Shown piece after piece: positions 1-58,024 of a stretch of 64,000 nt of DNA (the stretch's first letter is position 1; the number at the start of each line of letters is the position of its first letter). The position numbers and the translations under genes were made by a program. The stretch comes from an uncultured Planctomycetales bacterium (GTDB lineage: Bacteria > Omnitrophota > Gorgyraeia > Zapsychrales > JAHFFX01), in the NCBI GenBank assembly GCA_964612665.1, contig CAZTCI010000003.1, forward strand, positions 969 through 64,968. The letters run 5' to 3'. The notes under the pieces were generated by a model, which saw only the letters and a list, made by a program, of their open reading frames with translations, had not been told where the DNA came from and did not search any database.

Positions 1-3000
1 CCCATGTCGTTCCAATTCACGCCGGCATCGCTCATCACGTCGACATCTGACCAGTTGATTCCTGTATTGGACAAATCATTCAAGCTCGACCAATTAATCC
101 CAATCATACTCATTGCGTTTAAATCAGACCAATTCACACCAATACTACTCATGATATTCAAATCAGACCAATTGACACCGGCATCGCTCATGATATCGAT
201 ATCTATCCAGTTAATGCCAGCATCCGTCAAGATATCAAGATCCGACCAATTAACACCAGAATCGGAGAGAATATCCAGATCCGACCAATTCACGCCGACA
301 TTACTCAAGATATTAATGTCCGACCAATTAATTCCCGACGTTGTCATCTCATTAATATTACTCCAGTTGACACCAATAGTTGAAAGCACAGTAATGTCAT
401 TCCAGTTGACACCAGCATCACTTAAGATATCAATATCAAGCCAATTAACACCGGCGTCGCTCATAATATCGATATCCAGCCAGTTGATACCAGCGTCAGA
501 TAAAGTATCTAGATCAGTCCAATTGACACCAGCGTTGCTTAGAATATTGATGTCACCCCAGTTAATTCCAGCGTCGCTCAAAATATCAAGATCAGCCCAA
601 TTGACACCAGTCGTACTTAAGACATTGATATCTGTCCAATTAATTCCCGACGAGGTAAGCGCGCCTAAATCTTCCCAGTTGACACCCGATTGATTTAAAA
701 CGCTTAAATCGATCCAGTTAATACCGGAGCTGGTTAGATCATTTAAGTTAGACCAATTCACGCCGTTGTTGGTTAAAACCGACAGATCATTCCAATTAAC
801 ACCAGAATCACTCAAAATATCCAGATCCGCCCAATTCACTCCGGCAGTACTTAAAACCGTAATGTCATTCCAGTTGATGCCGGCATCACTCAAAATATCT
901 AAATCCGACCAGTTGATGCCAGCGTCGGAAAGAATGTCCATATCGATCCAATTGATTCCAGCATCGCTTAGGACATCGATATCAGCCCAGTTCACACCAG
1001 CATCACTTAAAATATCCAGATCAGCCCAGTTCACACCGGTGGTACTTAAAACACCTACATCAGTCCAATTGATTCCTGTCGTCGTTAAAGCGCCAAGATC
1101 ATTCCAGTTGATGCCGGTCGCGCTTAAAACACTAACATCGTTCCAATTAATTCCGCTGGTTGTCATTTCATTTAGATTCGACCAATTAACACCGCTCGTG
1201 CTAATCACATCGAGATCGTTCCAATTGACGCCAGTGTCGCTTAAAATATCCAGATCCGCCCAATTCACGCCGGCGTCACTTAAGATGTCGATATCAAGCC
1301 AATTAATGCCAGCGTCGGACAAAACATCCAAGTCCGCCCAATTCACACCGGCGTTACTTAAAATATTAACGTCATTCCAATTAATGCCAGCGTCACTCAA
1401 AACATCAATGTCCGCCCAATTCACGCCGGCGTTAGTCAAGGTATTAATATCAGACCAGTTAATTCCGGCATCACTCATGATATCCAAATCAGCCCAGTTG
1501 ACGCCGGCCGCCGTGAAGACACTAAGATCACTCCAATTGACACCCGTTGTCGACAACGACCCTAAATCATTCCAGTTGACACCAACGTTAGTTAAAATAT
1601 TAATGTCCGACCAGTTAATCCCGGAAGTGGTCATATCATTAATGTTCGTCCAATTCACACCACTTGTTGTCAGCACCGTGATATCATTCCAATTCAATCC
1701 AGCGTCGGAAAGAATATCCAGATCCGCCCAGTTGACGCCCGCGTCGCTTAAGATATCAATATCAAGCCAGTTGATTCCTGCATCTGACAACACATCCATA
1801 TCCGCCCAGTTGACGCCGGCGTCGCTTAAGATATCGAGATCAGCCCAGTTAATTCCGGCATCACTTAAAATATCAAGGTCAGCCCAGTTCACACCGGTTG
1901 TGCTTAAAACTGTTAAATCACTCCAGTTGATGCCCGCGTCACTCAAAACATCGAGATCCGCCCAGTTGAGTCCGGCCGTCGATAAAACACCGACATCATT
2001 CCAATTGATTCCCGTCGTCGATAAAGCGGCGAAATCATTCCAATTAACACCCGCATCACTTAAGATATCAACATCCGACCAATTAATGCCGACGGTTGAA
2101 AGCTCACTGATATTGTTCCAATTAATTCCGGTGGTTGAAATGACGCCTATATCAGACCAATTCAAACCCGTATCACTCATGATATCCAAATCCGACCAGT
2201 TAATGCCGGCGTCACTCAAAATATCCAAGTCCGTCCAATTAATGCCGGCATCACTTAAAATATCAAGATCCGCCCAATTCACACCCGTCTGACTTAAAAC
2301 ATCAATATCCGACCAATTAAGACCTGCGTTTGAAAGCGAGGCTAAGTCACTCCAATTCGTTCCGATATTACTTAAGACATTCATATCCGACCAATTAATT
2401 CCTGTCGTCGTTAAAACAGTCAAATCAATCCAATTCACTCCTGCGTCGGATAAAATATCGATATCCAACCAATTGATGCCGGCACCAGACATGTCATTTA
2501 AATTCGCCCAGTTGACACCGCTATCGCTCATCACGTCGATATCGGTCCAGTTGATCCCTGCGTCTGAGAGAACGTCAATATCCAGCCAGTTGATGCCGGC
2601 ATCGCTTAAGATATCCAAATCAGCCCAATTAATTCCGGTTGTGCTGATCACACCAAAATCATTCCAGTTAATTCCCGTGTTGCTTAAAACATTAAGATCT
2701 GACCAGTTTAAGCCACCGGTTGTCATGTCACTGATACTTGTCCAGTTAACACCGGTCGTGCTTAACACCGTCAGATCATTCCAATTTAATCCGGCGTCAC
2801 TCATCGCATCCAAATCCGCCCAATTCACGCCCGCGTTACTTAAAACATTAACATCCAGCCAATTAATCCCCACATCGCTTAAAATATCCAGATCCGCCCA
2901 ATTCACACCCGCATCACTTAAAATATCAATATCCACCCAGTTGATTCCAGCGTCTGAAAGAATATCTAAATCTGACCAATTAATTCCGGCATCGCTTAGG

Positions 3001-6000
3001 ATGTCCAAGTCCGCCCAATTCACACCGGTATTTGTTAAAACAGTCAAGTCATTCCAATTAATTCCAGCGTTGCTTAAAATCGTCATGTCATACCAGTTAA
3101 TTCCCGTTGTCGTTAAAGTTCCAATATCACTCCAATTAATACCCGTGACACTTAAGGCGCTCAAATCATTCCAATTCACTCCAGCATCACTTAAGATATC
3201 AACGTCAGCCCAGTTTAGACCTGCTGTCGTCATTTCATTAATGTTGCTCCAATTGACACCGATATTTGATAAAACACCTAAATCACTCCAGTTGATTCCA
3301 GTTGTGCTAAGAGAAGACCAATCAGCCCAGTTGATTCCGGCATCGCTTAAAATATCCAGGTCACTCCAGTTGATTCCAGCGTCGGAAATAATATCCAGAT
3401 CCGTCCAATTGATCCCGGCATCACTTAAGATATCCAGATCAGCCCAATTAATTCCAGCATCGCTTAGAATGTCCAAGTCCGCCCAATTCACACCGGCGTC
3501 ACTTAAAATATCGACATCCGACCAATTAATTCCCGCCGTTGATAACGCCCCGAAATCATTCCAATTAACACCCGAAGCACTTAAAACGCCGACATCTGTC
3601 CAGTTGATTCCGGATGTGCTCATCTCATCGATGTTCGACCAATTAACGCCCGTCGCTGATAAAACCGTTAAATCATTCCAGTTGACGCCGGTCGTACTCA
3701 AAACCGTCAAATCAGACCAATTGACACCCGCATCGCTTAAAATATCAAGATCAGCCCAATTAATGCCAGCGTCAGAAAGAATATCTAAATCCGCCCAGTT
3801 GACACCCGTATTACTTAAGACATTAATATCATTCCAATTGATACCAGCGTCAGAAAGAATATCTAAATCCGCCCAGTTCACGCCCGCATCACTTAAGATA
3901 TCGATATCAACCCAGTTGATTCCCGCGTCAGACAAAATATCCAAATCAGACCAATTCACGCCAGCGCTGCTCATTACATTAATATCTGACCAATTCAGTC
4001 CAACGGTGCTAAATACCGTTAGGTCCGCCCAGTTCACACCTGAATCACTTAATATATCAACATCCGCCCAATTGATGCCGGCAACGGTCATTTCGTTGAT
4101 GTTCGTCCAGTTAACGCCGACATTGGACATGACGGTCAAATCACTCCAATTAATACTGGAACTGCTCAACACCGTCAGATCCGTCCAATTTACACCTGCA
4201 TCACTTAAAATATCCATATCCAACCAATTAATACCAGCGTCGGAAAGGATATCCAAGTCCGCCCAATTCACACCTGCATCACTCAAAATATCCAAGTCCG
4301 CCCAGTTAATGCCGGCATCGCTTAAAACATCCATGTCCGCCCAATTCACACCTGCGTCACTCAATACATCGAGATCTGACCAATTGATTCCAGAAGTTGA
4401 CAAAGCACCGATATCAGCCCAATTAACACCCGTTGCGCTAATGACATCAATATCCATCCAGTTGATTCCGGATGTTGTCAAATCATTAAGACTTGACCAA
4501 TTGACGCCCGTCGTAGTTAGCACCGATAAATCATTCCAGTTAACACCGGTGTCGCTCATCACATCAATGTCGAGCCAGTTCACGCCCGCGTCACTCAAGA
4601 TATCAATATCAGCCCAATTAATTCCCGCATCAGAAAGAATATCCAAGTCTGCCCAATTCACGCCTGCGTTACTTAAAACAGTGAAATCATTCCAATTAAT
4701 TCCGGCATCACTTAAGATATCGAGATCCACCCAGTTGACACCAGCATTGCTTAGCGTATTAATATCGGCCCAATTAACTCCGGCATCAGAAAGAATATCC
4801 AAGTCCGCCCAATTCACGCCCGCATCACTTAAAATATCCATGTCCGTCCAGTTAATGCCAGCGGTCGTTAAAGCGCCAACATCGGCCCAGTTAACGCCGC
4901 TTGTTGCGATAACATTAATGTCGGTCCAGTTAATTCCTGTCGTCGATAAAGCACCAATATCGCTCCAGTTCACACCCGCATCACTTAAAATATCTAAGTC
5001 AGCCCAATTGATTCCAGCGTCGGATAAAACATCGAGATCCGCCCAATTCACGCCTGCATTACTTAAGACATTCATGTCCGTCCAGTTAATCCCGGCATCC
5101 GAAAGGATATCTAAATCAGCCCAATTGACGCCTGCGTCACTTAAAACGTCGATATCAAGCCAATTAATTCCAGCATCGCTTAAAATATCTAAATCGCTCC
5201 AATTAATTCCAGCATCGCTTAAAATATCCAAATCACTCCAATTGACACCAGACGTTGTCAAAGCGCCGACATCATTCCAATTAATACCAGCATCGCTGAG
5301 GATATCAACGTCTGACCAATTGATGCCTGAAGCTGTCATATCATTGATATTTGTCCAGTTGACACCAATTGTTGACATCACATTCATGTCTGACCAGTTG
5401 ATCCCCGCCGTGGTTAGTGTATCCACATCCAACCAATTAACGCCTGCGTCAGTCATGATATCTAGATCCGCCCAATTGATTCCCGCCGTTCCCAACGTAT
5501 TAAAATCAGTCCAATTAATTCCCGCATCACTTAAAGTGTCCAAGTCCGTCCAGTTAATGCCATCAGTACTGAGAATGTCGACATCCGTCCAGTTGATCCC
5601 ACTTAAAGTCATCACGGCCATATCATTCCAGTTAAGTCCGGCAACCGACATAACCGTTAAGTCACCCCAGTTGACACCCGCGTTAGAAAGTGTGGCCAAA
5701 TCATCCCAATTAATAGTTGAATCCCAGTTGACACCCGCCCCACTCATATAGGCAATGTCATACCAATTAACACCAGCGGTACTTAAAAATTGCAAATTGT
5801 CCCAGTTAATGTTGGCATCGCTTAAAATATCGAGATCACTCCAGTTGACGCCTGCATCACTCAAAATATCAAGGTCTGCCCAATTGACACCCGCGTCGCT
5901 TAAGATATCAACATCGGCCCAATTAACACCGGCATCACTCATCACATCAATATCCAGCCAATTTATTCCCGACGTCGATAAACTAAAAAGATCTGTCCAG

Positions 6001-46514: not shown

Positions 46515-49070
<2,556 letters not shown>

Positions 49071-49863: not shown

Positions 49864-49940
49864 TGGTCGGGGAGGAGGGATTTGAACCCTCGACCTCAAC
49901 GTCCCGAACGTTGCGCGCTAGCCAACTGCGCTACTCCCCG
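49864..49940 (-). tRNA. tRNA-Pro (anticodon CGG), CCA encoded
   Basis: Minus-strand sequence CGGGGAGTAGCGCAGTTGGCTAGCGCGCAACGTTCGGGACGTTGAGGTCGAGGGTTCAAATCCCTCCTCCCCGACCA. Anticodon loop TTCGGGA. Confidence 0.8.
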
Positions 49941-50069
49941 AATGTCGTGTTAATAATTTTTTAAAATGGAAAGTTAACAATAAATGAAGGGTTAGTTTAT
50001 CATTCTGATTTTCGTTCGTCAACCATGGATTCTATTTCTGTAAGGCTAACGTGTCGGCGGCGGGAAAAT

Positions 50070-50507
50070 TTATTCTGTTTCTTTAATACTAAATCCAATA
50101 TCAGCTTCAGCCACGAGTTTATCGGCAACGAGCGTTTTGATTCTTAAAAATCCGGCCTTAGGCAGCATCTTGATTGAAGTGACTTCAATTCTTAATTGAT
50201 CGCCCGGGACAACCGGCGCGTGGAATTTGGCTTCGACTCGGGCCAAATAGTAGGTCAAAGTTTTGCCGTGCATATTTTTACTGTAGTAAAAAAAGACGCA
50301 GCCTGCCTGGGCCATGGCTTCAATAATCAAAACGCCCGGCATGATCTTCTCTCCGGGAAAATGCCCAACGAAAAACTGCTCATTGATCGAAACGTTTTTA
50401 ATCGCAACCAGTTTTTCCCGCGGCACGATCTCAAGCACTTTGTCGATCAGCAAAAACGGGAAACGGTGAGGAATAATTTTTTTAATTTCACGAATGTCAA
50501 GTTCCAT
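50070..50507 (-). CDS. fabZ: 3-hydroxyacyl-ACP dehydratase
   Basis: Hotdog fold with the catalytic motif (FFVGHFPGEKIMPGVLIIEAMAQ). Confidence 0.9.
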   Translation of the reverse strand: MELDIREIKKIIPHRFPFLLIDKVLEIVPREKLVAIKNVSINEQFFVGHFPGEKIMPGVLIIEAMAQAGCVFFYYSKNMHGKTLTYYLARVEAKFHAPVVPGDQLRIEVTSIKMLPKAGFLRIKTLVADKLVAEADIGFSIKETE

Positions 50508-50520
50508 AAAGTTCCTTTCA

Positions 50521-50603
50521 GCGTATAGCGGGTAGCGGGTAGTGAAATTTTATAAATACTAAACACCTATCCGCTATGTACTTTCCGCTACCTAACTGAT
50601 CCA
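50521..50603. repeat. palindromic element 'tagcggtcagcgg / ccgctatccgctgcc' family, copy a
   Basis: gcgggtagcgggtag ... ctatccgctatg..ccgctacc inverted repeats. Related to copies at 51967-52029, 53625-53850 and 55085-55275. Confidence 0.6.
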
Positions 50604-51779
50604 CTTAAGAATAGGCGTTTCGAAAAATTGCTTTAACGGCATTTCGGATGTTCCCACAACCAGCGTCTTGGATTTAGGATATTCTTTGAAAAAAAGAGAT
50701 AAACCGGATAAAGCTTTACGTTTTCCACTTTTGACTTCAATGGCAACGATCTTGTTTCCTTTACGCATAATAAAATCGATCTCATCATTGCCTTCACGCC
50801 AATAATAGACTTCTACTCCGGCCGCTAAGCCGTTGTTCACCAAATGCGCTCCCACCGCTACCTCTACTAAACGTCCCCACGATTCGAAATCATTTCTCCA
50901 TTCACTGAAACTGCGATTGGCCAGTGCCGTCATCAAACCCGTATTTAACGGCAGCCATTTGGGAATCGATGCGCGCTGCCGGACTTTATTGCCTGACCAT
51001 TTAGAAATTCCGCAAATCAAAAATGCAGATTCGAGAAGTCTCTGATAATGGGCGAGGGTTGTTGTGTTCCCGGCATCATGCAGCTGTCCTAGGATTTTTT
51101 GATAAGAAAGGATCTGCCCTCCATACGTACAGGCAAGAACAAACAACTGCCGCAATAAAGCTGGTTTCTCAACGCTGGTCAAAAGCAAGATATCTTTTGA
51201 AATCGCTGTCTCGATAAGAGAATCTCGGATGTATTGCCCCCAGCGTTCTTCCTCATCGATTAAAGAAGCGGCGCCGGGATATCCACCAAAATAAATATAC
51301 TGATCGATTGACCAATGAAAGGCATCCCGGCATTCTTCCCAAGACCAATGGGGAAAACGAATGACCTCAAAACGCCCGGCTAAACTTTCCTCTAAACCTT
51401 TTTTGATCAGCAAAGACGATGATCCGAGAAGAACGACCAGAAGCGGCCGGGACAAACGCGTGTCTTCATCCCATAGCCGCTTGACTTCCGTTGACCAATG
51501 GGATATTTTCTGAATCTCATCGAGGATCAAAATGACCGGCGTCTTGTTTTCAAGCTTTAATCTGGCTGCTTCCCATTGTCGGGAAATCCACCCCGTGTCC
51601 GGAGGTGCGGGTAAATCGGCAGCGGCATAATGATACGGGATATTTAATTCTCCGACAACCTGCTGAATCGCCGTCGTCTTTCCCACCTGCCGAGGACCGA
51701 TAATCGCTTGAATGAAACGTCTTTTTTCTTTCAGCCGTTGTTTGATAGCCTCAGCGATGGGACGTTTATATCTTTTCAT
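50592..51779 (-). CDS. AAA+ ATPase, COG1373 / DUF4143 family
   Basis: Walker A GPRQVGKTT and Walker B ILILDEIQ. C-terminal DUF4143-like region. Confidence 0.8.
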   Translation of the reverse strand: MKRYKRPIAEAIKQRLKEKRRFIQAIIGPRQVGKTTAIQQVVGELNIPYHYAAADLPAPPDTGWISRQWEAARLKLENKTPVILILDEIQKISHWSTEVKRLWDEDTRLSRPLLVVLLGSSSLLIKKGLEESLAGRFEVIRFPHWSWEECRDAFHWSIDQYIYFGGYPGAASLIDEEERWGQYIRDSLIETAISKDILLLTSVEKPALLRQLFVLACTYGGQILSYQKILGQLHDAGNTTTLAHYQRLLESAFLICGISKWSGNKVRQRASIPKWLPLNTGLMTALANRSFSEWRNDFESWGRLVEVAVGAHLVNNGLAAGVEVYYWREGNDEIDFIMRKGNKIVAIEVKSGKRKALSGLSLFFKEYPKSKTLVVGTSEMPLKQFFETPILKWIS

Positions 51780-51966
51780 AGAATTCTCCCATAATTATCT
51801 CAGCGCGTTGAGTAATTTTACTCAATATTATGAGTAAAATCAAAAGATATTTCAGGCCTTCGCTCTTAAATAAAATTCTTAATCGGTTCCCTGGCTCGTC
51901 ACAACGATGATCAGCGACACAGAAAAGTTAACGAATGTTTTAGATTTTTTCCATCTATCATGTCTA

Positions 51967-52029
51967 GTGGATAGCGGTCAGCGGTTAATGGAATTTATAA
52001 AACACTATCCGCTATGCGCTATCCGCTGC
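51967..52029. repeat. palindromic element, 'ccgctatcc' family, copy b
   Basis: tggatagcggtcagcggttaatgg ... ctatccgctatgcgctatccgctgcc. Confidence 0.6.
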
Positions 52030-52034
52030 CTTTA

Positions 52035-53585
52035 TTAATTAAGCACTGATCCCCCTCGAATAAGGCTGCCTCCTTGGATCAAATGATTATGCGTACCACT
52101 TGTATAGTTAATATAAAAACTAACATTCCAGGTTTTCGCAGCATCTTCCGTCCAGGAATTAGGAAGAGAACCAGTTGCCTCATGAGCAGATGTGTCATAA
52201 GCGGCATTGGAATCGTATTCATTTTTCCAACCGACACAATCAATAGGTGATTGACCATCAGTGCAGGAATCGGCCAGCCAGTAGGTGGTTCCATTTGTCA
52301 TGGAGTATGATCCGGAGACATTAATTGTAAAGGTCGTTACGGTGGTTGTTAAACTCAAAGAAGCGCTGACTTCATCACGTTTTGTCACCGGCACTCCGGA
52401 TCCGTTACTGTATAAACCAAGATAAACGGTCGCTGTACGAGCTCCATTTCCATTTCTTCCCCGCCAGCTTCCACTGGAGATCGTTGAGCCTGTCGTCCCG
52501 CCAAACGAACCCGCATTATACGCTAATTCCCAATCATCAGTATTATCTTCAGATGATCCATTCGTTGTATATCCATACGTCGGATCAATGCGGACTGGGT
52601 AATCGGCGTTGTCTAGAAAATCCTGCGGAACGTCCACGCTCAAAATCCCTTTGGCATACGCCAGTGTCGCCCAGGTTTCGCGGCCGTTTCGGTCAATCGC
52701 TTTGGGTCGGTAAATATGAAACAATTTTCCCGTCGCGTAATTGGTCTTTCCGATCTCATGGTCTCTTTTTTTCTTGTGATAAACGGCATAAGAGCCGACC
52801 ACATTTTCGGGACGGGTATTCATGACGCGTCCTTTTTTGTCAAAACATTGCGTCTCTGTGCAATGGTCGGTGCCTAGTTTAAGTGAGGACGGAATCTCTT
52901 TATTTAAGGCGGGCTGGTAAAGAAAATTTAAATGCCGGGCGCCTTTGATTACAAAATCAAATTTGTTTATCCGCGGTTTTTCTTTCAAAATGATTTCCAT
53001 CTCAATCCCACCGTCTTCCATTTGAGCATCCGCTTTGAGCGGATAAGCGCGAACATCTTCTTTGTCTCCCTTCCACTCGACGATCTCTGAGTCTCCAACC
53101 CTTTGGCCTCGGCCATGAACCTTTGGATAAATAACGCTGAAACCTGATGCGCCGCTCCATCTAGAAAGCGTCACTTGCGGCCTGGACTTTTTGAATTCCG
53201 CTTTTGAAATGCCTCCCTCGGGAACGGAATTGCCCATCTTGATTTGAAATCGGTTGAATCGTTCTTCTAAATGGCCGATCGTTATGACAGGCGATTGCGG
53301 TGTCTGTGCCTTGGGCAGGTTCTCCAATTTCACATTGGTTTCCCCTTGGGCCGGATATGGAAGTGCTTTCTGATTTAACCAGGGAAATGGAAAACTTTGA
53401 TCATTATAAAATCGCAGACCATTTCCTTTCGATAAGATTAATTCCTCAGGCCAATACATCCATTGAGTCAACAAAGAATCAATCGCCAGCGCTGCGCGAG
53501 ATTCTTTGTTGGATAGAATCAAAACGCTACCGATCAACAGCAGAGTAAGCAGAAAAGTTGGGGGAAATCTTGGTATTTTTATCAT
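52035..53585 (-). CDS. secreted hypothetical protein (516 aa), Gly/Ser/Thr-rich C-terminal half
   Basis: Signal peptide MIKIPRFPPTFLLTLLLIGSVLIL. No recognisable catalytic motifs. Confidence 0.5.
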   Translation of the reverse strand: MIKIPRFPPTFLLTLLLIGSVLILSNKESRAALAIDSLLTQWMYWPEELILSKGNGLRFYNDQSFPFPWLNQKALPYPAQGETNVKLENLPKAQTPQSPVITIGHLEERFNRFQIKMGNSVPEGGISKAEFKKSRPQVTLSRWSGASGFSVIYPKVHGRGQRVGDSEIVEWKGDKEDVRAYPLKADAQMEDGGIEMEIILKEKPRINKFDFVIKGARHLNFLYQPALNKEIPSSLKLGTDHCTETQCFDKKGRVMNTRPENVVGSYAVYHKKKRDHEIGKTNYATGKLFHIYRPKAIDRNGRETWATLAYAKGILSVDVPQDFLDNADYPVRIDPTYGYTTNGSSEDNTDDWELAYNAGSFGGTTGSTISSGSWRGRNGNGARTATVYLGLYSNGSGVPVTKRDEVSASLSLTTTVTTFTINVSGSYSMTNGTTYWLADSCTDGQSPIDCVGWKNEYDSNAAYDTSAHEATGSLPNSWTEDAAKTWNVSFYINYTSGTHNHLIQGGSLIRGGSVLN

Positions 53586-53624
53586 CTATTAAAATTAGAT
53601 TCTTTGAGATCGTTCTCTAAACTC

Positions 53625-53850
53625 AAAAAACGGAGAACAGATGTCAGAATTTCAGCAGATAGCTGGCGATTAGCAGTCAGCGGTTAGTGAAGACTGTTAA
53701 AAATTGATAATTAACGCGAATTCTCACGAATTACACACGAATATTTGTGTGCAATTTGCGTTTATTCGGTTCAAATGTTGTTATTCAACAGTTCTCATTA
53801 GTTAAAAATACTAAACACTATCTGCTCTACGCTAGCCGTTACCTTTAGAC
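53625..53850. repeat. composite repeat: 'ccgctatcc'-family arms with a nested 'acacacgaat' REP (copy c and REP C)
   Basis: Left arm cagcagatagctggcgattagcagtcagcggttagtg. Central cgcgaattctcacgaattacacacgaatatttgtgtgcaatttgcg. Right arm actaaacactatctgctctacgctagccgttacc. ~85% identical to 55085-55275. Confidence 0.65.
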
Positions 53851-53895
53851 AATTTACTTGACAAGCATAAAATATCCGGATAAATTTATACCACA

Positions 53896-55047
53896 ATGAA
53901 AATTATCCAAAGACGACAATTCAACCTGAACCTTCCCAAAGGGAAATCTGCTTTCCTTTGGGGACCACGGAAAACAGGCAAAAGCTATTGGATCAAACAT
54001 CATCTTCCAGCTGCTCCTCTCATTGATCTTCTTAAAACTGATGTTTTTGCGGAATATTCCTCCCGGCCTTCTCTTTTAAGGGAACGATATCAAGATCAAA
54101 AGGGACTTATCGTCATCGATGAAATCCAAAAAGTTCCGGCACTTCTCGATGAAGTTCATTGGCTCATTGAAAACGGAGCGCTTTCTTTTCTTTTAACCGG
54201 ATCGAGCGCCCGCAAACTCCGCCACGGACATTCCAACCTCTTGGGCGGACGAGCCTGGAAAAGAACAATGTGCCCTCTCTCTTGGAGTGAAGTTTCCGGT
54301 TTCGATTTGGAACAGGTCATGACATCCGGTCTTTTGCCGCCTCACTTTCTTTCTTCAGCGCCCTTGGAAGATCTACGCGCCTACGTTGGGGATTATTTAA
54401 AAGAAGAAATCGCCGCCGAAGCGCTGACTCAAAATATTCCAGCTTTCAGTGAATTTCTACGCATTGCCGCCATCACCTCAAGTGAACTCATCAATTATGT
54501 CAACATCGCCCGAGAAGCTGGCATTTCCCATAACGTTGTCCGCAATTACATCAGTATCTTGGAAGACACTTATCTTGGACGCCGGCTGTCTTCCTGGAAA
54601 AAGTCATCGAATCGACGGATGATTCTCACCGAAAAATTTTATCTTTTTGATGTCGGTGTCGCCAATTATTTAGCCCATCGACAACCCAAGATTGGCAGTC
54701 CGGAATTCGGTAAATCCTTCGAACATTTTATTTTTATGGAACTGTGCGCCTATCAAGCTTACCGTGCTTTTGATCTACCGCTAAGTTACTGGCGTTCCAG
54801 TACCGGTTATGAAGTTGATTTTATCGTCGGAGATAAAGAACTTGCCATTGAAGCTAAGGCCTCTTCTCGGGTCCATGAAGGGGATTTACGTCCTATGCGA
54901 GCGCTTCTAGAAGACGGCCCCATCAAACATCCTTGCATCGTCTCACTTGAGAAAGAACCACGTCGCACCTCTCACGGAATCAAAATCCTGCCTTGGAATA
55001 TTTTTCTCAAAGAACTTTGGGACGGAAACTTGATTAAAAGCTCATAA
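53896..55047 (+). CDS. AAA+ ATPase, COG1373 / DUF4143 family (second copy, opposite strand)
   Basis: Walker A GPRKTGKS and Walker B LIVIDEIQ. Same architecture as 50592..51779. Confidence 0.8.
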   Translation: MKIIQRRQFNLNLPKGKSAFLWGPRKTGKSYWIKHHLPAAPLIDLLKTDVFAEYSSRPSLLRERYQDQKGLIVIDEIQKVPALLDEVHWLIENGALSFLLTGSSARKLRHGHSNLLGGRAWKRTMCPLSWSEVSGFDLEQVMTSGLLPPHFLSSAPLEDLRAYVGDYLKEEIAAEALTQNIPAFSEFLRIAAITSSELINYVNIAREAGISHNVVRNYISILEDTYLGRRLSSWKKSSNRRMILTEKFYLFDVGVANYLAHRQPKIGSPEFGKSFEHFIFMELCAYQAYRAFDLPLSYWRSSTGYEVDFIVGDKELAIEAKASSRVHEGDLRPMRALLEDGPIKHPCIVSLEKEPRRTSHGIKILPWNIFLKELWDGNLIKSS

Positions 55048-55084
55048 TCCTTTGATTTCTGACATCCGTCCTCTGAACTAAGAA

Positions 55085-55275
55085 AACGGAAAACAGAGGT
55101 CAGATGTTAGAATTTCAGCAGATAGCGATTAGCGGTCAGTTAAGACTGTTTAAAATTGCTTAACGCGAATTCTCACGAATTACACACGAATATTCGCGAA
55201 TATTTGTGTGCAATTCGCGTTTATTTGCGTTCAAATTATTATTAACAGCGCTCTACACACTATCCGCTGCTTTCA
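55085..55275. repeat. composite repeat (copy d and REP D), direct repeat of 53625-53850
   Basis: aaaacggaaaacagaggtcagatgttagaatttcagcagatagcgattagcggtcag ... cgcgaattctcacgaattacacacgaatattcgcgaatatttgtgtgcaattcgcg ... ctctacacactatccgctgc. Confidence 0.65.
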
Positions 55276-55312
55276 ATTAATCATCAATCCTTTCTCGAAG
55301 TTTATTGTCTTC

Positions 55313-55759
55313 CTAAAACTCCATTAGGCGAAACATTTTGACACTCTGATTAAACGTCACTTCCTTAAAGAGATCAAAAAAGCCATCTCTGCCTAAGAAT
55401 CCAATACCTTTGCTGTTTAACTTGGTAGAGAATCCAGCCCGACATTCAAAAATCCAAGGTTCATCTTTAATGATGATTTCCACTTTCACCTGATGAAAAT
55501 ATAATGTTTCTTTACCGCCTATCCCGAAGGTGGACAGATTTTTCCCTTCTTGAATATTTAGTCCAATAGCCTTTCCCGTATTAACTGGAAATACGCAAAA
55601 ATCGGCCCCGGAATCAACAAGGGAATCGATATAGAATAATCGTTCCTTATTTTTATAAAACAGTGTGGTTTTCAAAACAGGAACGTAAATAGTTTTGGAA
55701 GGAATATCACCTTGCGCAGGTATTTGAATTCTTTGATATGGAACAGTGCTGTAGCTCAA
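55313..55759 (-). CDS. retropepsin-like (clan AA) aspartic protease
   Basis: DSGAD active-site motif (YIDSLVDSGADFCVFP) followed by a glycine-rich flap-like GIGG. 148 aa. Confidence 0.6.
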   Translation of the reverse strand: MSYSTVPYQRIQIPAQGDIPSKTIYVPVLKTTLFYKNKERLFYIDSLVDSGADFCVFPVNTGKAIGLNIQEGKNLSTFGIGGKETLYFHQVKVEIIIKDEPWIFECRAGFSTKLNSKGIGFLGRDGFFDLFKEVTFNQSVKMFRLMEF

Positions 55760-55962
55760 AAGATAATGGCAGCTGTTGAAGCGTCGGGAGATTTAACTAT
55801 ATGTGGACAGGACTCGCCTTTTCTGTGTGCATCATTTAACACCGCCTGAAAACTTTTGCGTACACTGACAACATGGGTGTCGTCAGCGGATAGAGCAACC
55901 CACCGCCCAGGAAATGGTTTAATTAATTCGTTGATTGATGTTTCTTTAACGCGTTTAATCAT
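55756..55962 (-). CDS. small DUF5678-like protein coupled to the retropepsin-like protease
   Basis: ~69 aa (MIKRVKETSINELIKPFPGRWVALSADDTHVVSV...). 4-nt stop/start overlap with the protease gene. Confidence 0.45.
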   Translation of the reverse strand: MIKRVKETSINELIKPFPGRWVALSADDTHVVSVRKSFQAVLNDAHRKGESCPHIVKSPDASTAAIIF

Positions 55963-56012
55963 GGTTTCATTATGATCTTCAAATATTTTGAAACAAGAAA
56001 AATTTAAAAAAT

Positions 56013-56786
56013 TTAACGCATTGTCATCCCGCCATCTACACAAATAATCTGGCCGGTGATATATTGAGCTGAATCGCTCAGCAAAAATTTAACGCAGTTG
56101 GCCACATCTTCGACGGAACCGATGCGGCCCAGCGGAATGGTTTCGGCGATTTTCTTTTTTTGTTCGTCTTTAAATCCGGAAAGGATATCGGTTTCAATAA
56201 AACCAGGGGCGACCGCGTTGACGCGGATATTGAAGGCCGCGACTTCTTTGGCCAGCGCTTTTGTAAACGCGTTAATGCCGCCTTTTGTCGCTGAGTAATT
56301 TGTCTGACGGGCGAGGCCGATGACGCCGCTGACCGAGGAGATATTAACAATCGCGCCGCTTTTTTGTTTCATCAAAGTGACGATAACTGCGCGCGAGGCG
56401 TTATAAAATCCCGTTAAATTGGTATCAACAACTGTCTGCCAATCTTCGGGCGTCATCATCATTAAGGCCTTGTCGATAATAATGCCGGCGTTGTTGATGA
56501 GAATATCGAGCCGGCCGAAATGTTCGCGCGTTTGCTCGACCCAGGCTTTGACTTGGTTGAAATCTTTCATGTCAACCTGCGCGGCTTTGACGTCGCCGCC
56601 GAGCTTTTTGACTTCCTCTTCTAATGCCTGCGCAGCGTTCTGATTTTTTTGATAACTAAACGCGACCCGAGCGCCGGATTTCGCGAGCATAAGTACAATC
56701 GCGCGTCCGATACCGCGGCTACCGCCGGTGACAAGCGCGACTCTATCTTTTAAAAATTTTTCAGTCTCGTTGAAAGATTCGCTCAT
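56013..56786 (-). CDS. fabG: 3-oxoacyl-ACP reductase (SDR)
   Basis: TGGSRGIGRAI, NAG, YSATK motifs. Confidence 0.85.
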   Translation of the reverse strand: MSESFNETEKFLKDRVALVTGGSRGIGRAIVLMLAKSGARVAFSYQKNQNAAQALEEEVKKLGGDVKAAQVDMKDFNQVKAWVEQTREHFGRLDILINNAGIIIDKALMMMTPEDWQTVVDTNLTGFYNASRAVIVTLMKQKSGAIVNISSVSGVIGLARQTNYSATKGGINAFTKALAKEVAAFNIRVNAVAPGFIETDILSGFKDEQKKKIAETIPLGRIGSVEDVANCVKFLLSDSAQYITGQIICVDGGMTMR

Positions 56787-58024
56787 GGTTCATATTTCCT
56801 TAAAACCATGCAGGTGTTTTGGCCGCTGGGCGCCATGGTTACGACCAAAACATTTTTGACTTTGGCGGGGCGCGATTGGTTAGGCACGTAATCCAAATCG
56901 CAATCCGGATCAGGTTCTTTGTAATTCACCGTTGGAGGAAGGAAATCCCAGTTGATTGCGCCCAGGGCGGCGAGCGTTTCGAACGCGCCGGAGACGCTGT
57001 AACACTCGCCGGTCATCGATTTAACGGCGCTGACTGGAATTTTGTGGGCATGTTCACCAAACACTTCTTTAATCGCGAGCGTCTCAACGCGGTCGGCGGT
57101 AATTGTTGAATTCGCGTTGGCCGCAATATAGTCGATGTCTTTAGGCTCAAGCCCCGCATCTTCTAACGCAAAACGCATCGCTTGTTTGATGCCGGTTGCG
57201 CGTGGATTATATTTATGGATGCGGAAAGGATCAAAGCAAGTGCCGAAGCCCACAACCTCGGCGAGAATCCGCGCGCCGCGGGCTTTAGCCTGGTCATAAT
57301 CTTCCATTGCAACAAGCGCCGCGCCTTCGCCAAAGGTCACGCCGTTACGTCTTTTATCAAAAGGACAATTGATAAATGTTTCGCCGGGCTTTGATCCGGA
57401 CATAAACTGCAGATTATAAAATCCAAAAAATGTTTGGATGCACAACTCTTCAACCCCGCCGGCGAGGATAAATTTATACCGGCCGTCTTTGATGAAATCA
57501 TAAGCATAACTCATCGCATCCAGACTTGCGGTGAAGCCGGTCGATATCGTTGTGTTAAAACCTTTGATGTAATGCCAGATGGAAATCTGGCTGGCAGGGG
57601 AATTGATGACCGTGTTGGGGAAAAGTGCGGGATTGACGTAGCGCGGGCCTTCGCGCAGCGTGATTTCGTCAAACTCAACAATGCTGCGCAAACTGCCGAG
57701 CGTGCAGCCGACGGAGACACCGCATTCTTCGGTATTTGTGTCGTCAATTTTGAATCCGGTATCATCGATACAGAGTTTGGCGGCGGAAACGATGAGTTTG
57801 ATACTCCGGTCTAAAAGCCTCAGCCGTTTTTCGCCCATGTAAACGCGGGCGTCGAAGTCGCTGATTTCACCGGCGATTTTTGTCGCGAATTGTTCAGGAT
57901 CGAAGGTCACAATCGGTTTGTAACCGACTTTACCATCTTTTAAAGCCTGCCAAAATTCTTCGCGGCCTTTACCGTTGCTCGCTAAAATGCCAGCGCCTGT
58001 GATGACGACACGTGGATCTTCCAT
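56783..58024 (-). CDS. fabF: beta-ketoacyl-ACP synthase II-like
   Basis: KAS thiolase fold with active-site Cys (GCTLGS... region) and the C-terminal His pair. Confidence 0.8.
   Translation of the reverse strand: MEDPRVVITGAGILASNGKGREEFWQALKDGKVGYKPIVTFDPEQFATKIAGEISDFDARVYMGEKRLRLLDRSIKLIVSAAKLCIDDTGFKIDDTNTEECGVSVGCTLGSLRSIVEFDEITLREGPRYVNPALFPNTVINSPASQISIWHYIKGFNTTISTGFTASLDAMSYAYDFIKDGRYKFILAGGVEELCIQTFFGFYNLQFMSGSKPGETFINCPFDKRRNGVTFGEGAALVAMEDYDQAKARGARILAEVVGFGTCFDPFRIHKYNPRATGIKQAMRFALEDAGLEPKDIDYIAANANSTITADRVETLAIKEVFGEHAHKIPVSAVKSMTGECYSVSGAFETLAALGAINWDFLPPTVNYKEPDPDCDLDYVPNQSRPAKVKNVLVVTMAPSGQNTCMVLRKYEP

Follow-up and report, generated by a model that had tools for sequence, protein, structure and literature searches.

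Retropepsins (MEROPS family A2), such as the proteases of feline immunodeficiency virus (FIV), human immunodeficiency virus 1 (HIV-1), Rous sarcoma and avian myeloblastosis viruses (RSV/AMV) and equine infectious anemia virus (EIAV), have a one-domain fold of ~100–130 residues with a GxGG flap and an (L/I)GRD/N motif. The retropepsin-like proteases characterized in prokaryotes are membrane-bound, secreted or linked to ribosome modification, and none of them is paired with a small protein of its own. The Rickettsia conorii enzyme APRc (RC1339) has a retropepsin fold and was reported to be active as a dimer; it is an outer-membrane-embedded, self-processing protease whose targets are surface autotransporters (PMC4140852). 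Pseudomonas RloA is secreted (PMC11957051), and RimB acts in RimABK ribosome modification, where it trims poly-glutamate tails (PMC11957791). Here we describe a two-gene module in a 64,000-nucleotide stretch of contig CAZTCI010000003.1 from an uncultured bacterium of the Omnitrophota (the window), in which a predicted retropepsin-like protease gene directly follows a small gene of the DUF5678 family.

The pair is an obligate, mobile, toxin-antitoxin (TA)-like module that is widespread in Omnitrophota and Patescibacteria, and its recognition is a new result of this analysis. A full-text literature search returned no paper on the function of DUF5678 or on a pair of a retropepsin and a small protein, and a search on retropepsin-like or PF13650 proteases with antitoxins, and on PDC-M08, returned no relevant paper. 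In the pairing, DUF5678, which is also present in Pandoraviruses, gains its first functional context. The elements of the module in the window are as follows.

55756–55962, minus strand: DUF5678-family small gene, the upstream partner; 68 residues, ATG at 55962, stop at 55756–55758
55313–55759, minus strand: retropepsin-like (clan AA) aspartic protease gene, downstream; 148 residues, TTG start
55756–55759, minus strand: 4-nt TTGA overlap, formed by the protease start codon (TTG) and the stop codon of the small gene (TGA)
55604–55615, minus strand: codons of the catalytic motif D49-S50-G51-A52 (GAT TCC GGG GCC)
55514–55525, minus strand: codons of the flap tip G79-I80-G81-G82, within the peptide FGIGGK
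55376–55396, minus strand: codons of L122-G-R-D-G-F-F128, counterpart of the retropepsin "GRD/GRN" motif
55759–55791, minus strand: codons of the C-terminal tail of the small protein (residues 58–68, SPDASTAAIIF), predicted to be disordered, conserved, and a candidate protease-binding segment

Both open reading frames (ORFs) lie on the minus strand at the coordinates given by a first-pass annotation of the window, which had measured the small ORF at ~69 residues and read its overlap with the protease gene at 55756–55759 as ATGA; the small protein has 68 residues, and the four nucleotides are TTGA. A 4-nt start/stop overlap is the arrangement expected for translational coupling. The TTG is the earliest possible start codon of the protease past the upstream in-frame stop, and no Shine-Dalgarno-like sequence was found ahead of it in the window. 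The protease peptide SLVDSGADFCVFP contains D49-S50-G51-A52, and the peptide RWVALSADDTHVVSV is present in the small ORF. These are not chance ORFs, since the protease has 79 and the small protein 36 homologues at 48–100% identity. A 45-residue ORF on the opposite strand (55712–55849, plus strand) spans the two-gene overlap; it is unsupported and most likely spurious.

Identity and fold of the two proteins

Profile matching of the two ORFs gave a divided outcome. Scores of the single sequences fell below the curated Pfam thresholds, and both identifications rest on family profiles and structures, which matched clan AA and DUF5678, respectively. The window protease scored 16.8 bits with Asp_protease_2 (cut-off 24.3), 13.1 with RVP (20.7) and 12.3 with gag-asp_proteas (28.2), below the gathering threshold in each case. 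Asp_protease_2 was matched at E ≤ 0.01 by 46 of 70 distant relatives, and given these matches and the sub-threshold scores we consider the protein to belong to a divergent clan AA subfamily that current Pfam thresholds miss. NCBIfam gave nothing relevant for the window protease, with no match to TIGR03698 (the AF_0612 family) or TIGR02281 at E ≤ 1; membership in either family was rejected on this ground. The same two models were weakly matched by 12 and 3 of the 70 relatives (best E = 1.5e-4 and 1.8e-3). A PHROGs scan returned no match.

A search of the PDB with the family profile recovered FIV protease (E = 0.003), and the alignment matched DSGAD, the GIGG flap and LGRD (LLGRDNM in FIV) in order. 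Within alignment A1, which holds 37 homologues of the protease, D49, S50, G51, D53, G79, G81 and G82 are invariant, as are L122, R124, G126, F127 and F128. D49 and G51 are retained across all 70 relatives at 25–50% identity. The D[ST]GA motif is intact in each of 69 paired proteases, and catalysis is therefore under selection. Distant relatives reach down to ~30% identity, and an exhaustive profile search placed the family at 1,568 clusters at 50% identity, nearly all members of which are stand-alone proteins of 130–160 residues. A family of this size, spread over uncultured lineages, does not sit with the initial description of bacterial retropepsin-like proteases outside retroelements as rare; the accompanying description of them as functionally obscure stands. 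In a separate locus (L009, positions 50–445) we noted a weak second match to the protease family (E ~2e-4), which keeps the flap and a GFFERF motif and is missing DSGA; it lies at a contig edge and may be a degenerate paralogue.

The AlphaFold2 (AF2) model of the protease has a predicted local distance difference test (pLDDT) score of 88.7 and a predicted template-modeling (TM) score of 0.82, and folds as one soluble beta domain in which the ~45 residues before the catalytic loop form an extra long beta-hairpin. In a Foldseek search of the PDB, the best match was Rickettsia APRc (5c9f, E = 2.5e-5), followed by the FIV, EIAV, RSV, HIV-1 and human T-lymphotropic virus 1 proteases and then by single lobes of pepsin-like enzymes; all top matches belong to clan AA. 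Together with the FIV profile match, this ranking upholds the first-pass assignment of a retropepsin-like protease with a DSGA motif and a GIGG flap. The model superposes on retroviral proteases over ~105 residues at 3.2–3.5 Å. The catalytic loop of RSV/AMV protease reads DSGAD, identical to that of the window protease. Unlike the retroviral enzymes, to which it is 15–20% identical, the window protease is encoded by a free-standing prokaryotic gene outside any Gag-Pol polyprotein or retroelement, and has the extra N-terminal hairpin and a dedicated small partner gene.

APRc (5c9b/5c9d/5c9f) is the closest structure, with TM-scores of up to 0.71 normalized on the target, at 13–16% sequence identity. 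No signal peptide, membrane segment or hydrophobic segment was found in the 148-residue protease, in contrast to APRc, for which no DUF5678 partner is reported. An APRc-type membrane retropepsin was rejected, as the window protease has no hydrophobic segment and its whole chain is modeled as a soluble beta domain. The small partner likewise has no hydrophobic N-terminus or membrane segment. RimB and RloA resemble the window protease in being bacterial retropepsin-like enzymes encoded within small operons together with partners (PMC11957791, PMC11957051), but those partners are ATP-grasp and transglutaminase-like proteins and not DUF5678 proteins. They also differ in family, the Pfam matches of the window protease being limited to Asp_protease_2, RVP and gag-asp_proteas. 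As judged from profiles and the predicted model, the 148-residue protein is a stand-alone, cytoplasmic retropepsin-like aspartic protease.

The small protein is, on sequence and modeling evidence, a member of DUF5678, as the first-pass annotation had proposed. The window protein itself scored 22.8 bits (E = 8e-5) with Pfam DUF5678 (PF18929), against a cut-off of 23.2. Many of its 36 homologues, including ones at 64–83% identity, carry PF18929 in a precomputed table, and DUF5678 was matched by 25 of 26 diverse partners from other loci (best E = 1.2e-13). A search with the partner profile found 405 proteins; among the 120 listed, nearly all carry PF18929, and one match is named DUF5678 domain-containing protein by NCBI. 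In the AF2 model (pLDDT 77.8), a short helix, two strands, a helix and a third strand are followed by a tail. The two best matches of this model in BFVD are the Pandoravirus DUF5678 proteins A0A2U7UG46 and A0A2U7UD66 (probability 1.00 and 0.99, TM-score 0.62, E = 0.02–0.03), in agreement with a DUF5678 fold. In the PDB, a sequence search with the small-protein profile returned only noise, and Foldseek with the model found nothing significant (best E = 0.9).

Conservation in the partner family extends into the tail. Across 69 diverse partners, W21 is conserved in 100%, P53 in 97% and P59 in 96%, and 75% have an aromatic/hydrophobic pair near the C-terminus. The tail itself (residues 58–68) is modeled at low confidence, with pLDDT below 50 at residues 65–68 and a mean of 53 over the last block.

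Pairing, co-divergence and one-sided decay

Relatives of the protease were sought in one genome per species. Those in Omnitrophota are 53–76% identical to the window protein, and relatives at 29–42% identity occur in many Patescibacteria lineages, Dehalococcoidia, Acidobacteria, WOR-3 and one Micrarchaeota archaeon. Pattern-based scans of loci used the narrower alignments A1 and A5, since the broader A3 and A4 were too divergent for this purpose. With hidden Markov models of both families, a DUF5678-like ORF was found directly upstream and on the same strand for 79 of 83 protease genes, at 78 loci; the remaining four lie at contig edges, which leaves none unpaired, and the expectation that the two families would be neighbors elsewhere was borne out. 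In searches that started independently from three DUF5678 proteins, a gene for 134–141 residues, in some cases labeled Asp_protease_2, was found directly downstream each time.

The coupled arrangement is also widely kept. A 4-nt start/stop overlap (ATGA, TTGA or GTGA) is present in 42 of 76 pairs, which supports the coupling proposed for the window, and the TTG/TTGA arrangement is found in every pair of the Omnitrophota clade. Distances between the paired proteins are correlated (Mantel r = 0.83, and 0.78 without the Omnitrophota clade), with none of 999 permutations reaching either value. Three loci carry two pairs each within a few kb: L011 (4818–6444), L028 (5773–6381 and 9090–9499) and L045 (2407–3011 and 5792–6414). 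L011 is a tandem duplication in an Omnitrophota metagenome-assembled genome, and the second protease of L028 is truncated to 69 residues.

While the two genes stay together, their surroundings vary. Clustering of the 120 nearest flanking proteins gave 110 clusters, and there is accordingly no conserved third gene. In the related genome L002, whose protease is 75% identical to that of the window, the pair adjoins gcvT, and the syntenic gcvT block of the window (~9.9–26.3 kb) is without it. GC content drops to 0.37 across 55000–55750, as compared with 0.46–0.52 in the flanking genes. The flanking diversity, the difference in gcvT synteny and the local GC dip argue for mobility of the module. Its varied context, duplicates and patchy spread over phyla look like those of a selfish or accessory module rather than a housekeeping one.

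Decay was examined in 80 metagenome loci that were found via a DUF5678 gene of the Patescibacteria-type subfamily. The pair is intact in 61, the contig ends within the protease in five, and four are uninformative. Six loci have a broken protease: L101 and L114 carry nonsense codons (TAG and TGA, respectively), L168 is frameshifted, and L132, L142 and L180 are truncated. Four others (L160, L167, L171 and L177) have no protease, and the two groups amount to ~10 of 76 informative loci. In the converse direction, a protease without DUF5678 was never seen (0 of 83). One-sided decay of this kind would be expected if the product of the downstream gene did harm whenever that of the upstream gene was missing. 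In a Shapirobacteria population (L086–L093, ~2700–3160), seven of eight contigs have one extra nucleotide in an A-run near codon 13 of the protease gene; L089 has an intact protease, and all eight share an identical DUF5678 gene. The frameshift could reflect true inactivation, phase variation or an assembly error in the homopolymer. At L177 (1054–1511), two small ORFs that may resemble a DUF4258/DUF2283-type TA pair lie after the orphan DUF5678 gene; if they are such a pair, the locus would be one that collects TA-like modules.

A toxin/antidote-like reading and its rivals

Taken together, these observations lead us to propose, tentatively and at slightly less than an even chance, that the pair is a self-contained, horizontally mobile two-gene module which works like a type II TA-like toxin/antidote pair. 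The DUF5678 protein would be translated first, from the upstream gene. The protease, with a weak TTG inside the upstream stop, would rely solely on ribosomes coming directly from translation of the partner, and such coupling would keep the partner in excess. By analogy with retroviral proteases, the enzyme would be active as a homodimer with one DSGA aspartate per subunit. Neither protein has a membrane segment, and a free cytosolic protease would need restraint: the partner would bind it and keep it harmless, with the conserved, disordered, hydrophobic tail most likely placed beneath the flaps in the substrate cleft or else at the dimer interface. Without its partner, the protease would be free to cleave cellular or invader proteins. 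What we infer from the organization and inheritance of the pair is binding between the two proteins, inhibition, the tail's role, toxicity and the trigger.

Several likenesses to type II TA systems underlie this proposal. The two small genes are co-oriented with the putative protective one first, share a 4-nt overlap, occur in variable contexts and, in some genomes, in several copies, and are inherited as a unit; orphan "antitoxin" and degraded "toxin" genes are seen, and the upstream protein has a conserved disordered tail. A tail that is conserved yet predicted to be disordered resembles the neutralizing regions of antitoxins. The first-pass annotation's suggestion of a TA-like character fits the evidence on the pair. 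Yeast IA3, a protein of 68 residues, is disordered until it is bound in the cleft of proteinase A, and the prosegment of pepsinogen is comparable. The proposed logic would be similar, with a small, partly disordered protein in the active-site cleft of an aspartic protease, although there is no sequence or fold relationship to IA3, which targets a two-lobed, pepsin-like enzyme.

A number of results weigh against a mobile toxin/antidote module. The module was not found by tblastn against plasmids and phages, and a scan of IMG/VR viral contigs revealed no relative. The small partner matched no PADLOC model. Pfam and fold searches found no DNA-binding family or fold in it, including helix-turn-helix, ribbon-helix-helix and AbrB-like domains; the absence of a known DNA-binding domain sets it apart from most type II antitoxins, and nothing indicative of autoregulation was found. 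No clear operator-like repeat lies upstream of the small gene, and the sole inverted repeat, an imperfect palindrome of 9 nt, falls within the small ORF. The pair follows fabG on the same strand at a distance of 50 nt, a consensus promoter scan of the minus strand upstream of the small gene found no promoter or terminator, and the module may simply be co-transcribed with housekeeping genes. The asymmetry of decay comes from a modest sample that is open to ascertainment bias, and visible lesions build up less often in a 200-nt gene than in a 450-nt one. Finally, to our knowledge no aspartic-protease toxin has been described.

Strict pairing, coupling and co-divergence would fit any obligate partnership equally well, and DUF5678 might instead serve a non-toxic protease of ultra-small cells as its dedicated substrate, adaptor or activator. 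It could be cleaved in its conserved aromatic/hydrophobic tail, thereby releasing or activating something, or it could act as a cofactor that delivers substrates or aids assembly of the protease dimer. The residues at the ends of the conserved tails (PYVG, TYIL, AAIIF) are of the kind that aspartic proteases favor around the scissile bond, as described for APRc and retropepsins (PMC4140852), and there are precedents for operon partners in RimB with RimA and RimK (PMC11957791) and in RloA with RloB and RloC (PMC11957051). A useful enzyme/cofactor pair, however, should lose either gene equally, and only the protease has been seen broken or missing; the random context, duplicates and patchy spread over phyla also look selfish or accessory. 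We regard this alternative as unlikely. A related possibility is a switch of the ImmR/ImmA or CapH/CapP type, in which DUF5678 would be a small regulator of the module or of genes nearby and the protease would cleave it upon a signal of stress or infection. The order of the genes, a small one followed by a co-transcribed protease, is that of ImmR/ImmA-like pairs, the module lies in an islet with candidate defense genes (below), and distant relatives of the protease occur in candidate defense systems. Known switches, though, use metallopeptidases and not aspartic proteases, the partner has none of the DNA-binding domains noted above, and no conserved third gene presents itself as a regulated target, making a switch distinctly improbable.

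Retroviral proteases are made by frameshifting, and the protease lies in the –1 frame relative to its partner in ~60 of 76 pairs, so a self-processing, Gag-Pro-like DUF5678-protease precursor was also considered. Ordinary 4-nt overlaps give the same frame bias, the overlap coincides exactly with a conserved ATG, TTG or GTG start codon, the genes of many pairs lie 2–17 nt apart or in other frames, and no X XXY YYZ slippery heptamer precedes the stop in the window (ATT ATC TTT TGA). On the strength of the conserved start, the many non-overlapping pairs and the missing slippery site, a programmed –1 frameshift fusion was rejected, and we give it hardly any credence. Natural DUF5678-protease fusions were also discounted, as the two candidates (P0024 and P0063) are out-of-frame N-terminal read-throughs over the small gene, and the extensions of P0257, P0203 and P0150 are unrelated.

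Returning to the toxin/antidote proposal, candidate defense systems were compared directly. The B proteins of PADLOC systems PDC-M08 and PDC-M52 are distant relatives of the protease, as 38 of 70 relatives match them (best E = 6e-9 and 5e-8); the window protease matches the two models weakly (E = 2e-5) and in its N-terminal half only. Identity of the module with PDC-M08 or PDC-M52 was rejected because the DUF5678 partner matches no model of either system.

Should the partner prove to be an inhibitor, no natural protein before it would have been known to inhibit a retropepsin-type enzyme, a point of relevance to inhibitor design, and the pair would be the first TA-like module to use an aspartic protease as its effector, adding to the sparse knowledge of conflict and regulatory systems in Patescibacteria and Omnitrophota. 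These lineages have very small genomes, yet the pair is kept and even duplicated. In its fullest form, the proposal would be that of the first toxin/antidote or abortive-infection module with an aspartic protease toxin, a cytosolic homodimer held by the tail of a 65–75-residue DUF5678 protein as a plug at the cleft or dimer interface, mobile and widespread in ultra-small symbiotic lineages (Patescibacteria, Omnitrophota and DPANN), and the first case of a natural protein inhibitor of a retropepsin; we think it rather unlikely that all of this holds. The family also offers simple, stand-alone relatives for considering the origin of retroviral proteases.

Genomic neighborhood of the module

The stretch of the window from ligA (47043–49070) to the pair, ~6 kb away, contains a tRNA-Pro gene, a FabA/FabZ-like gene, two AAA_14/DUF4143 ATPase genes and a gene for a 516-residue protein. 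In the related genomes L010 and L012, ~0.7 kb separates the pair from the ligA orthologue. The neighboring features on both sides are as follows.

49864–49940: tRNA-Pro
50070–50507: FabA/FabZ-like gene
50592–51779, minus strand: AAA_14/DUF4143 ATPase gene, match to PADLOC PDC-S01
52035–53585, minus strand: gene for a 516-residue protein of no assigned family, between the two ATPase genes
53896–55047, plus strand: AAA_14/DUF4143 ATPase gene, match to PADLOC PDC-S01
56013–56786: FabG-like gene
56783–58024: KAS gene

Both ATPases match the PADLOC single-gene defense candidate PDC-S01 (E = 3.4e-174 and 2e-51), which places the protease module in a small islet of candidate defense genes. With these two genes nearby, the dip in GC content and the broken synteny with relatives, the accessory islet proposed in the first-pass annotation is supported. 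The 516-residue protein gave sub-threshold Pfam matches only (DUF7901 and BclA_C) and no PADLOC match; it has a hydrophobic N-terminus and a C-terminal part rich in Gly, Ser and Thr. Across 49864–58024, the fatty-acid synthesis genes look as if they were split by the islet, with the FabA/FabZ-like gene on one side and the FabG-like and KAS genes on the other.

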